Virus record (IMG/VR): IMGVR_UViG_3300020158_000335
Location: 1 to 64,000 of that record
Direction: 5' to 3' (one strand)
Length of the DNA: 64,000 bases
Source of the DNA: a virus
This document shows, piece by piece, positions 8,741 to 9,483 of this stretch. Positions within the stretch are counted from its first letter, which is position 1, and each line of letters begins with the position of its first letter. The position numbers and the translations under genes are program-made. Below the pieces are notes generated by a model that had not been told where the DNA came from, ran no database searches, and was given only the letters and a program-made list of their open reading frames with translations.

Positions 8741-9259
8741 TCATGGTTCTGATATGGGCAAACTGTTGATATCGAATGTTTTGCGCTGCTTCCATTCCGC
8801 CGCTTTCCCCTGGTTCCAATTGCTCACAGGCCGGAGGAAACCCACCACGCGCGAATAAATCTCCGTTCGGGGGTGGAAGACCGGGTCTTTCCCAAAGCAA
8901 GCCTCGCATTTGAACATGTAATCGCCTGTGGTATAATTCCAGCCAGACGGCGGATGAAACACCGCCCCGCCTTCGATAGTTGTTTCCTCGCCGTACTGGG
9001 ATGCCTTAACCGTTACTGCCTCATTGCAGTCCATGCAATCCCCTTCGAAAGTGAACGGGTTTTGCACTTGTAAAAGCTCTTTTAATTTTTCCAATTTCAT
9101 CGTTTCGCCTTTTATTCTGAGTTTATGTGTTCCATCACACCAAGTGCATTCTCGGCCAGGTGGATTATAATGCCCGCATTTTGGGCAGGGTTTTGGTTCG
9201 CCAAGTTTGACTCCGGGATAGCAATTATTAGATGTTTGATAAAAGTCTCTGCCTCCCAT
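8741..9259 (-). CDS. Stand-alone NrdD C-terminal (glycyl-radical loop) zinc-ribbon protein
   Basis: TEIYSRVVGFLRPVSNWNQGKAAEWKQRKTF; Cys pairs CPKC/CTWC and CMDC/CEAC; GGGAGG 6 nt before ATG at 9259. Confidence 0.75.
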   Translation of the reverse strand: MGGRDFYQTSNNCYPGVKLGEPKPCPKCGHYNPPGRECTWCDGTHKLRIKGETMKLEKLKELLQVQNPFTFEGDCMDCNEAVTVKASQYGEETTIEGGAVFHPPSGWNYTTGDYMFKCEACFGKDPVFHPRTEIYSRVVGFLRPVSNWNQGKAAEWKQRKTFDINSLPISEP

Positions 9260-9483
9260 TAATAGCCTCCCTGTAATATTGCCCAGGCTCGAACGCCACG
9301 AAACATCCACATTGAGATGATTGGATGCCCCTTTGCGGTTACGCAATCTCTCAGTTCTTGATCTGCTTTCAGCCGCATGGCAGCGGATTTGAGTTCCTCT
9401 GCCAGCACGCAGCCAATATCATGAATACGGCAGCAATCTGACCAATTGCCTTCGAGAAATGCAGTTCAGTATTTGGTTTTCAT
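9259..9483 (-). CDS. PLA2-like small protein with in-frame UGA at codon 6 (candidate selenoprotein; otherwise a pseudogene)
   Basis: Reads MKTKY(TGA)TAFLEGNWSDCCRIHDIGC...RLKADQELRDCVTAKGHPIISMWMFRGVRAW; ATGA overlap upstream, TAATG overlap downstream; hairpin at 9432-9450. Confidence 0.65.

Follow-up and report, generated by a model that had tools for sequence, protein, structure and literature searches.

Selenocysteine recoding has been described for cells and for a small number of animal viruses. In bacterial selenoprotein genes that depend on SelB and a SECIS element, of which E. coli fdhF is the prototype, the recoded UGA occupies the position of a cysteine in homologs, and a stem-loop lies just 3′ of it, within the coding sequence. 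The published model of the bacterial element (bSECIS) asks for an apical loop of 3-9 nt, an upper stem of 4-16 bp, a distance of 16-37 nt from the UGA, a minimum free energy (MFE) of ≤-7.5 kcal/mol and a G in the first two loop positions, with G[G/U] at the loop start (PMC13188914). No paper was found in the literature reporting selenocysteine recoding for a virus of bacteria, and the words phage and virus do not occur in a 2026 review of prokaryotic selenoproteomes (PMC13188914).

A second set of described systems, the small phospholipases A2 (PLA2), is relevant to the locus reported here. Group XIII/XIV enzymes, such as those of Streptomyces violaceoruber (1FAZ/1LWB) and Tuber borchii (TbSP1, 4AUP; PF09056), carry a His-Asp dyad within a C-x-x-H-D motif on the first helix of a three-helix core. 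Among viruses, the VP1u region of parvoviruses is likewise a small PLA2-type domain with an HD dyad, which is virion-borne and used in entry. Moreover, the DUF1353 protein TtaP (PF07087) has been described as a novel phospholipase A2, and DUF1353 proteins are common in prophages (PMC11525133).

In a lake prophage (IMG/VR provirus, record IMGVR_UViG_3300020158_000335), we have identified a gene for a PLA2-like protein which is a candidate selenocysteine gene and which, unlike the bacterial selenoprotein genes, is borne by a phage. The window, by which we mean the whole stretch of 64,000 nt that was analysed, covers positions 1 to 64,000 of the 75-kb record. The initial annotation had read, in the gap between two annotated genes, a minus-strand frame that fills this gap exactly and whose only lesion is an in-frame TGA. 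Both points held when the sequence was re-read, and the gene is real: it has 74 codons (9259-9483, minus strand, stop included), reads M-K-T-K-Y-UGA-T-A-F-L-E-G-N-W-S-D-C-C-R-I-H-D...GGY and is interrupted solely by the TGA at 9468-9466. Its ATG (9483-9481) overlaps the TGA stop (9482-9480) of the upstream gene within an ATGA (9480-9483, minus strand). Past codon 6 the frame runs through 68 open codons to a TAA (9261-9259), which in turn overlaps the next start within a TAATG (9261-9257). The upstream neighbour (9480-14126, minus strand) encodes a virion-cargo-like protein of 1548 aa with ddrB-ParB and PBECR1 domains, and the downstream one (8741-9259, minus strand) a protein resembling the C-terminus of NrdD (PF13597, NRDD, E 2.4e-9). 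Since the sole Shine-Dalgarno-like sequence upstream of the PLA2-like ATG is a GGAG 11 nt away, initiation probably depends on coupling. The downstream gene has a Shine-Dalgarno of its own, GGGAGG at 9271-9266, which lies inside codons 71-73 of the PLA2-like gene and 6 nt before the downstream ATG (9259-9257), so that this signal and the TAATG overlap together occupy 9257-9271 on the minus strand. It had been suggested that readthrough of the UGA couples the downstream glycyl-radical gene to the supply of selenium; given this separate Shine-Dalgarno, the suggestion is unsupported.

The likeness to PLA2, first proposed from the catalytic motif, is now backed by both profile and fold. The protein matches phrog_6098 over residues 1-67 (E 1.4e-13) and has 103 phmmer hits, with about 100 family members in databases. 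The family profile matches four solved group XIII/XIV PLA2s (E 2e-4 to 4e-2), and the nearly invariant H21 and D22 are aligned with the RHD of 4AUP and 8K1W, that is, with the catalytic His-Asp dyad of the first core helix. An AF2 model of the protein (pLDDT 93) shows three helices. Its best three structural matches are all microbial PLA2s, with an rmsd of 2.0-2.5 over 66-70 residues and Z of 7.2-7.4, a Z below 8 being merely moderate for a helical protein; the matches ranked below them are generic helical proteins with an rmsd >5. The Pfam gathering score is reached by no family member, the best matches being to DUF1353 (E 7e-5) and PF09056 (E 0.016). Weak matches to DUF1353 are seen in 5 of 39 family members, the window protein itself having none. 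TtaP is comparable in that it, too, is small, is of bacterial or prophage type and has a distant relationship to the group XIV PLA2s; however, it has 125 aa and is devoid of the four disulfide cysteines (PMC11525133), which the window family keeps. In comparison with the group XIII/XIV enzymes, the window protein has just 74 residues, bears no signal peptide and carries CC before xxHD where those enzymes have one C; its activity is predicted.

The genes of relatives sit among tail-tip, tail-fibre or virion-cargo genes, which suggests a putative virion-associated, membrane-attacking role. In Mannheimia phage PHL101 the gene comes after a tail-fibre gene, and in Pseudomonas phage ZRG1 it lies between baseplate V and a PAAR protein. 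Parvovirus VP1u is an analogy of role only; parvoviruses infect animals, their particle is different, and no recoding is involved. The PLA2-like gene is accessory: the portal-containing relatives L017-L021 are without it, and in a contig of run X12 position 8747 is followed directly by 9502, so that both small genes are missing. A diverged X12 contig shows four differences from the window over 9327-9503. Megablast of 8700-10000 against the phage collection gave no match, a homolog search with the single window protein returned no candidate with enough 5-residue words in common, and no related locus was confirmed in viral contigs when the window protein, the downstream protein, the database relative P0062 and one family alignment were used as queries. 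In the plasmid collection, tblastn with the window protein returned one weak match, and the gene is absent from the P1-like plasmid prophages of that collection.

The in-frame UGA at codon 6 (9466-9468, minus strand), the candidate selenocysteine codon, is aligned with a nearly invariant cysteine. The statement of the initial annotation that relatives have Cys at this position is correct: C6 is nearly invariant (at least 90%) in alignments of 39 and of 102 relatives. Five close orthologs share the N-terminus M-x-x-x-x-C-T, four of them being exactly 74 aa long, and homology extends to either side of the UGA (K-x-x-Y-[U/C]-T), with only 5 codons preceding it. The base was also checked in independent assemblies, and the same TGA is present in Logan contigs from three other studies (2018-2023); contigs of runs X5 (8700-9503), X8 (9123-9607) and X6 (9453-9836) span codon 6 without a single difference. 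A sequencing or assembly error is contradicted by this agreement. Similarly, a host that reads all UGA codons as an amino acid is contradicted by TGA being an ordinary stop here, ending 17 of the 48 long minus-strand ORFs, including the gene directly upstream, so a changed genetic code is not the explanation; in addition, no tRNA (suppressor tRNA included), selB or other Sec machinery was found in the phage record. An artefact or a different code is hardly credible. When all 75 kb of the record were searched for further frames interrupted by a TGA and furnished with a bSECIS-like hairpin, no convincing case emerged.

A plain nonsense mutation from TGY to TGA deserves closer weighing. In that case ribosomes would stop after MKTKY, the accessory gene would be inactivated, and the remaining frame would be a young, undecayed pseudogene. 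A single base change suffices for this, and other family members are visibly broken, L016 by an in-frame TAG and P0007 by a frameshift-like tail. On the other hand, a random nonsense change in the PLA2-like gene would strike codon 6 in about 1 of 35 cases and any conserved Cys in about 1 of 7, by our own count from the sequence, and on this count the position of the UGA at codon 6 is beyond chance.

The hairpin reported 15 nt past the UGA was recovered at 9450-9432. Folding with ViennaRNA gives a 7-bp upper stem, GGCAAUU/GAUUGCU (9450-9444 with 9438-9432), closed by the apical loop GGUCA (9443-9439), with an energy of -6.1 kcal/mol; when the two lower pairs, C9454-G9428 and G9453-C9429, are included, the candidate bSECIS extends over 9428-9454 (minus strand) and reaches -8.7 kcal/mol. 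With a loop of 5 nt, a stem of 7 bp, GG at the loop start, a UGA-to-loop distance of 22 nt and -8.7 kcal/mol, the hairpin passes the bSECIS model on every count, in our own implementation of the published model and not in bSECISearch. Its sizes, spacing and energy thus fall within the consensus of bacterial selenoprotein genes. The loop of the E. coli fdhF SECIS also begins GGU(C), and lies 18 nt past the UGA as against 22 nt here. A further difference is that the 5′ arm of this hairpin has no bulged U.

When set against its background, the hairpin is only marginally beyond chance. In this phage the bSECIS model is passed by 8% of random in-frame sites and by 10% of Cys codons, and the 40-60 nt past the UGA have an MFE that is ordinary for this phage, with equally good folds at 33-53% of in-frame sites. 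A simple hairpin of equal stability and with GU in its loop occurs at 1.6% of in-frame sites, and one with a loop starting GGU at 0.3%. Synonymous recodings that keep the peptide fixed yield an equally good hairpin in 8-9% of cases. In the fold of the whole region the hairpin is absent from the MFE structure (z = +0.47), and an Rfam scan of 8500-10500 with E up to 10 returned no SECIS or other credible family. At the homologous site of the Cys-form loci, the bSECIS model is passed by 0 of 10; one of the relatives, L005, encodes the peptide EGNWSDCC by other codons and has no such hairpin. Were the UGA a mere nonsense codon, the hairpin would be a by-product of the G-N-W-S-D-C codons, and the frequency of hairpins this good, at 8-10% of sites, is in favour of that explanation.

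Cys was tabulated against TGA at codon 6 in related loci, as had been proposed. One relative, L004 (Ga0194044), whose protein is 86% identical, keeps the TGA, while ten other loci have TGY. Three database relatives with truncated N-termini (P0020, P0044 and P0062) may be additional UGA cases. The DNA of L004 and the window has diverged by about 6% (94.0% and 93.2% identity in the aligned segments), and it is identical over 120 nt upstream through the UGA and again over 99 nt after codon 10; in the upstream gene, the last ~100 nt are identical and the remainder differs. Because the DNA around the TGA is identical, the two UGA sequences count as about one observation, a point which is in favour of a nonsense mutation. 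This identity may be due to recent recombination. In L004 the upper stem-loop of the hairpin is identical to that of the window, and its energy of -7.1 kcal/mol is just short of the -7.5 threshold; no covariation or compensatory changes are present in the hairpin between the two UGA sequences. The start of the downstream gene also differs in L004, where GGGAGG is kept before a TTG start.

The frame past the UGA evolves like coding sequence. Between L004 and the window, which are separated by a dS of ~0.2 in the PLA2-like gene as in neighbouring genes, there is neither an indel nor a new stop in the 68 codons. The dN/dS between the two UGA forms is 0.34 (9.5 synonymous vs 12.5 non-synonymous changes), similar to the 0.29 of the neighbouring gene. 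A binomial test against neutrality gives P of 0.012-0.037, a range that comes from rounding the 9.5 synonymous changes either up to 10 or down to 9. The dN/dS near 1 and the further lesions of a pseudogene are therefore not what this comparison, a small sample, displays. The changes cluster in codons 54-63, and some of the constraint behind the low dN/dS may date from a Cys-form donor, prior to recombination. The presence of the TGA allele in two phages at this distance with an intact frame, the selection on that frame and the persistence of the allele in lake metagenomes from 2018 to 2023 all speak against a nonsense mutation. The accessory nature of the gene, the separate Shine-Dalgarno of its downstream neighbour and the structural role of the Cys in PLA2 homologs speak for it. 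We consider a nonsense allele unlikely, though a rival of some weight.

Purifying selection past the UGA is compatible with any decoding, and so with a leaky UGA that involves no selenocysteine. Most ribosomes would then terminate at codon 6, and a small fraction would read through by means of a near-cognate tRNA (Trp or Cys), providing a very low dose of a membrane-damaging phospholipase. Of the stop codons, UGA is the one most prone to leakage in bacteria, and attenuation is plausible because a phospholipase could harm the cell that produces it. Nevertheless, the fold would probably suffer from Trp in place of the conserved Cys, no readthrough signal of a known kind was identified, and both the Cys-codon position and the bSECIS-fitting hairpin are left unexplained. 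Simple leakiness thus seems improbable.

Translation could also begin from a GTG at 9408, giving a shorter protein of 49 aa that contains helices 2 and 3 without CCxxHD and leaves the 5′ part as a dead leader. This ORF was listed by the ORF caller; three database relatives (P0020, P0044 and P0062) are annotated only from residues 30-36 onwards, and in codons 26-53 the differences between the window and L004 are all synonymous. Such a product would, however, be devoid of the catalytic His-Asp helix and of three of the four conserved Cys, and there is no Shine-Dalgarno in the 20 nt before 9408. Moreover, the exact 49-aa sequence, whether that of the window or that of L004, is not among the gene calls of a 15-billion-protein collection, and no conserved residue of codons 7-25 has changed between the two lineages. 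A 49-aa product is very improbable.

If selenocysteine is inserted, the machinery would come from the host. The tyrosine integrase of the phage (1-1212, plus strand) was used to place the host clade: its named homologs are found in a Deltaproteobacteria MAG (78%) and in Desulfatirhabdium butyrativorans (63%), and in its nearest Atlas clusters Thermodesulfobacteriota is the commonest phylum. A member of the PLA2-like family is also present in D. butyrativorans. The host probably belongs to the Thermodesulfobacteriota and lives in anoxic lake water, and Thermodesulfobacteriota are among the most selenoprotein-rich clades (PMC13188914; PMC5029168).

In the course of events that we infer, from the identity of the host and its Sec machinery to SelB binding, Sec insertion and enzymatic activity, translation would start at the ATG overlapping the upstream stop. 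Host SelB with Sec-tRNA would bind the stem-loop 15 nt downstream of the UGA through its GGUCA loop, and selenocysteine would be inserted at codon 6 in place of the conserved Cys of the family. The product would be a small three-helix, His-Asp PLA2-like protein of a P1-like temperate phage. It may carry a selenylsulfide, or else a free selenol, at residue 6, because the homologous Cys of the solved group XIV PLA2s is engaged in a structural disulfide beside the catalytic helix.

This last point also counts against selenocysteine. In group XIII/XIV PLA2s it is the Cys of a D-G-C-S/T loop that aligns with codon 6, and in the group XIV enzymes this is one of four structural disulfide Cys, an unusual place for Sec. 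To our knowledge, nearly all bacterial Sec residues lie at redox-active sites. In contrast to known selenoproteins, the PLA2-like protein is not an oxidoreductase, and its residue 6 stands outside any motif of the UxxC/CxxU type. The phage selenoprotein put forward in the initial annotation has thus been strengthened as to the gene, the likeness to PLA2, the UGA at a Cys position, the agreement of the hairpin with the consensus and a probable host clade rich in selenoproteins; it is limited by there being one further TGA sequence only, by the lack of covariation, by hairpins this good occurring at 8-10% of sites and by the structural nature of the Cys. From these sequence comparisons, decoding of the codon-6 UGA as selenocysteine has, in our judgement, about an even chance. 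The fuller proposal, a selenoprotein made by a temperate phage of sulfate-reducer-type bacteria with the Sec machinery of its host, in which Sec replaces a structural disulfide Cys of a virion-associated PLA2 and gives a selenylsulfide cross-link, is tentative, possible but on balance slightly doubtful. If true, the selenylsulfide might be made more readily and last better than a disulfide under the reducing, sulfidic conditions of the water in which the particle has to survive; the selenoprotein family would be new, Sec would have a use outside redox chemistry, and a virus of bacteria would be recoding UGA as Sec.

Should the UGA be decoded as selenocysteine, phages can exploit the Sec machinery of their hosts, and gene callers would systematically miss such genes, as here, where the PLA2-like gene shows up only as a gap. 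The selenoprotein families would then gain the PLA2-like proteins, in which Sec holds a structural and not a catalytic-redox position. If the UGA is merely a nonsense allele, this would be an ordinary accessory gene in decay. Whatever the UGA means, the widespread and barely annotated family of small phage PLA2-like proteins to which the gene product belongs provides a candidate for a virion enzyme that acts on the membranes of the host.

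The minus-strand frame that the initial annotation had described between two genes proved correct in coordinates, peptide and overlaps when the sequence was reread. It runs from an ATG at 9483-9481 to a TAA at 9261-9259 and overlaps its neighbours on both ends; the start overlaps the TGA stop (9482-9480) of an upstream gene whose 1548-aa product carries ddrB-ParB and PBECR1 domains, and the TAA overlaps the ATG (9259-9257) of the next gene, whose product matches NrdD only at the C-terminal glycyl-radical end (PF13597, E 2.4e-9). M-K-T-K-Y precedes the in-frame TGA at codon 6 (9468-9466), and 68 open codons lie between this TGA and the TAA. 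The full record, of which the window is the first 64 kb, is a 75,154-bp IMG/VR provirus (GC 46%) with a tyrosine integrase at its left end. Its portal shares 34% identity with the P1 portal and 43% with the portals of Vibrio plasmid prophages, which makes the phage P1-like; in the window, a giant cargo-type protein lies on one side of the gene and the portal on the other.

The TGA base at codon 6 is real. Lake and freshwater metagenome runs of 11 studies contain the stretch, whole or in part, and contigs from three studies cover codon 6 with zero differences (X5, 8700-9503; X8, 9123-9607; X6, 9453-9836). The genetic code of the phage is standard, TGA being the stop of 17 of the 48 long minus-strand ORFs, among them the adjacent upstream gene. 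With such agreement between studies and such use of TGA as a stop, an artefact or an altered code behind this codon is hardly credible.

The read-through translation matched phrog_6098 across the UGA (E 1.4e-13, residues 1-67) and had 103 phmmer matches among 1.8 billion representatives. In alignments of 39 and 102 members, C6 (the UGA), C18, H21, D22, D41 and C47 are near-invariant, as is C17 in the larger one, which bears out the earlier claim that relatives have Cys at this position. Codon 6 is TGT or TGC at ten metagenome or genome loci, and a second search gave five close orthologs (P0226-P0230), the first four of exactly 74 residues each, starting M-x-x-x-x-C-T and ending GGY. Judged by these alignments, the family is genuine, the gene is one of its members and the UGA sits on the family's conserved Cys. 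The GGY C-terminus is common to many close relatives, and in the window the GGGAGG Shine-Dalgarno that serves the next gene lies within its codons (9259-9271); this embedded ribosome-binding site may partly explain the conserved tail. The same motif, 6 nt before the start of the downstream gene and kept before a TTG start in L004 (the only other locus with a TGA), leaves without support the second proposal of the initial annotation, a coupling of the glycyl-radical gene to selenium supply by readthrough.

The proposed PLA2-like identity is supported by both profile and structure. The family profile matches four solved microbial secreted PLA2s, 4AUP (E 2e-4), 8K1W, 7YGK and 1FAZ, through D-G-C-S/T and C-x-x-H-D. 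The AF2 model has three helices (pLDDT 93), and its best three structural matches are the same PLA2 families (Z 7.2-7.4, rmsd 2.0-2.5 over 66-70 residues), followed by generic helical proteins with rmsd >5. No single family member reached the Pfam threshold, the weak matches being DUF1353, PF09056 and PLA2G12. The DUF1353 protein TtaP is reported as a novel phospholipase A2 with a distant relationship to the group XIV enzymes; in SvPLA2 and TbSP1, according to the same paper, two structural disulfides are built from four Cys (PMC11525133). Since the D-G-C Cys of such enzymes aligns with the UGA codon, the position is most likely a structural disulfide site adjoining the catalytic helix.

Downstream of the UGA, ViennaRNA predicts a minus-strand hairpin with a 7-bp stem, GGCAAUU/GAUUGCU (9450-9444 with 9438-9432), and a GGUCA loop, at -8.7 kcal/mol once two lower C-G pairs are included. 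The consensus bacterial SECIS has a loop of 3-9 nt, an upper stem of 4-16 bp, a G among the first two loop nucleotides (usually G[G|U]), a UGA-to-loop distance of 16-37 nt and an MFE <= -7.5 (PMC13188914). In our own implementation of this model the hairpin falls within all these limits; 8% of random in-frame sites fit it too, as do 10% of the phage's Cys codons, and 5% pass with an energy at or below that observed. Over the 40-60 nt that follow the UGA the MFE is average (33-53% of in-frame sites do as well). A simple hairpin of equal stability is found at 11% of sites, at 6% with a G in the first two loop positions, and at 1.6% with a GU or 0.3% with a GGU loop, both of these filters having been picked after the loop was seen; when codons were redrawn from phage usage for an unchanged peptide, rates were 9%, 8% and 3%. 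None of 10 Cys-form loci passes the model at the homologous site, and locus L005 encodes the identical EGNWSDCC peptide with different codons and no such hairpin. No Rfam family matched the region. The hairpin agrees with a SECIS and is modestly unusual, which is not proof.

The 2.8-kb metagenome contig L004 has the same TGA in a gene whose protein is 86% identical; its hairpin has an energy of -7.1, a C-to-U change weakening the lower stem. Its upstream gene shares only a C-terminal module of ~100 nt with the window, and its downstream gene is without the zinc-ribbon N-terminus. Aligned segments are 94.0% and 93.2% identical, and recombination is likely, with 120 nt before codon 8 (TGA included) and 99 nt over codons 11-43 (hairpin included) being identical and the differences lying mostly in codons 54-63. 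Given these identical flanks, the two TGA/hairpin pairs are not independent observations. Between them the frame shows zero indels, zero new stops and a dN/dS of 0.34 (dS 0.23), compared with 0.29 for the shared parts of the neighbouring NrdD-like gene and 0.01 for the gene that follows; the synonymous excess has a binomial P of 0.012-0.037 (9.5 synonymous changes taken as 10 or 9), and replacements are conservative, at variable family positions. The low dN/dS, intact frame and conservative replacements favour continued translation beyond the UGA, but the constraint may stem from a Cys-form donor. Leaky UGA readthrough without Sec would produce such translation as well, and we consider it improbable; a short product started at GTG 9408 is very doubtful.

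In the window, the NrdD-C-terminus-like gene (8741-9259, minus) has a 53-residue Cys-rich zinc-ribbon-like N-terminal extension; L004 453-812 has none, its TTG start coinciding with the internal M-K-L-E-K-L-K of the window protein. In the gene of the 1548-aa protein, the C-terminal module (K-A-K-T-F-Q-D-I-A-x-V-F...G-V-T-L-D-D-D) occurs twice (9497-9587 and 10829-10919, minus; 77% DNA identity) and is 100% identical in L004 despite the otherwise different upstream gene; it looks like a recombination joint for exchanging cargo-protein bodies.

The PLA2-like gene is accessory, as portal-based relatives are without it and a high-depth X12 contig passes straight from 8747 to 9502, leaving out both small genes (window 8748-9501). 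The PLA2-like and NrdD-tail genes appear to act as a single accessory cassette, missing from some related phages. Family homologs lie directly after the tail-fibre gene in Mannheimia phage PHL101 (ORF23), between baseplate V and a PAAR protein in Pseudomonas phage ZRG1 (WID42127), and, at locus L006, with a DUF4376 fibre-related gene on one side and an endolysin on the other. The first two are annotated merely "hypothetical" or "membrane protein", and their placement suggests a tail-tip-associated phospholipase without a name in current annotation. The family is a putative virion-associated small phospholipase acting on host membranes.

Elsewhere in the family, P0007 loses similarity past residue 52 in a frameshift-like manner, and for P0020, P0044 and P0062 the annotation starts only at residues 30-36, despite contigs of 1.9-16 kb; further in-frame stops may lie hidden in these relatives. 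Phage T5S1-k141_444551 (PQ867842.1, 1495-1730) has an unannotated member directly before its tail-fibre gene, with Cys at the codon-6 position, an in-frame TAG exactly at the window's Q42 (A-D-Q-E-L) and a C-terminal part that no longer matches the family consensus. Either this gene has decayed or it hints at TAG-to-Gln recoding in the phage's late genes.

A search of the phage record for a tRNA and selB found neither, and no second frame interrupted by TGA and followed by a convincing hairpin exists in the whole record. The integrase has named homologs in a Deltaproteobacteria MAG (78%), Desulfatirhabdium butyrativorans (63%), which has an annotated Cys-form family member, and Thermodesulfobacteriota and Syntrophales MAGs (48% each); Thermodesulfobacteriota is the commonest phylum of its nearest Atlas clusters. 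This phylum is among the most selenoprotein-rich bacteria (PMC13188914; PMC5029168), and a Sec-rich clade is the probable host.

The reading of the codon-6 UGA as selenocysteine stands at about even chances. It is favoured by the exact Cys position, by a hairpin fitting a model that none of the ten Cys forms passes, by coding-like evolution past the UGA in each of two genomic contexts, by the allele's persistence across years and by the probable Sec-rich host. It is weakened by there being about one independent observation, no covariation, a common hairpin type, a structural rather than redox Cys, and an accessory gene in a family visibly decaying elsewhere. Such decay would suit a plain inactivating stop at codon 6, which the evolution past the UGA would not; we regard that explanation as rather unlikely, yet serious, and leave a small remainder for readings other than those named here. 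Our literature search found no paper describing a selenoprotein of any virus of bacteria, and a 2026 review nowhere mentions phages or viruses (PMC13188914). If true, selenocysteine here would represent the known bacterial mechanism, but carried by a phage gene and extended to a new protein family.
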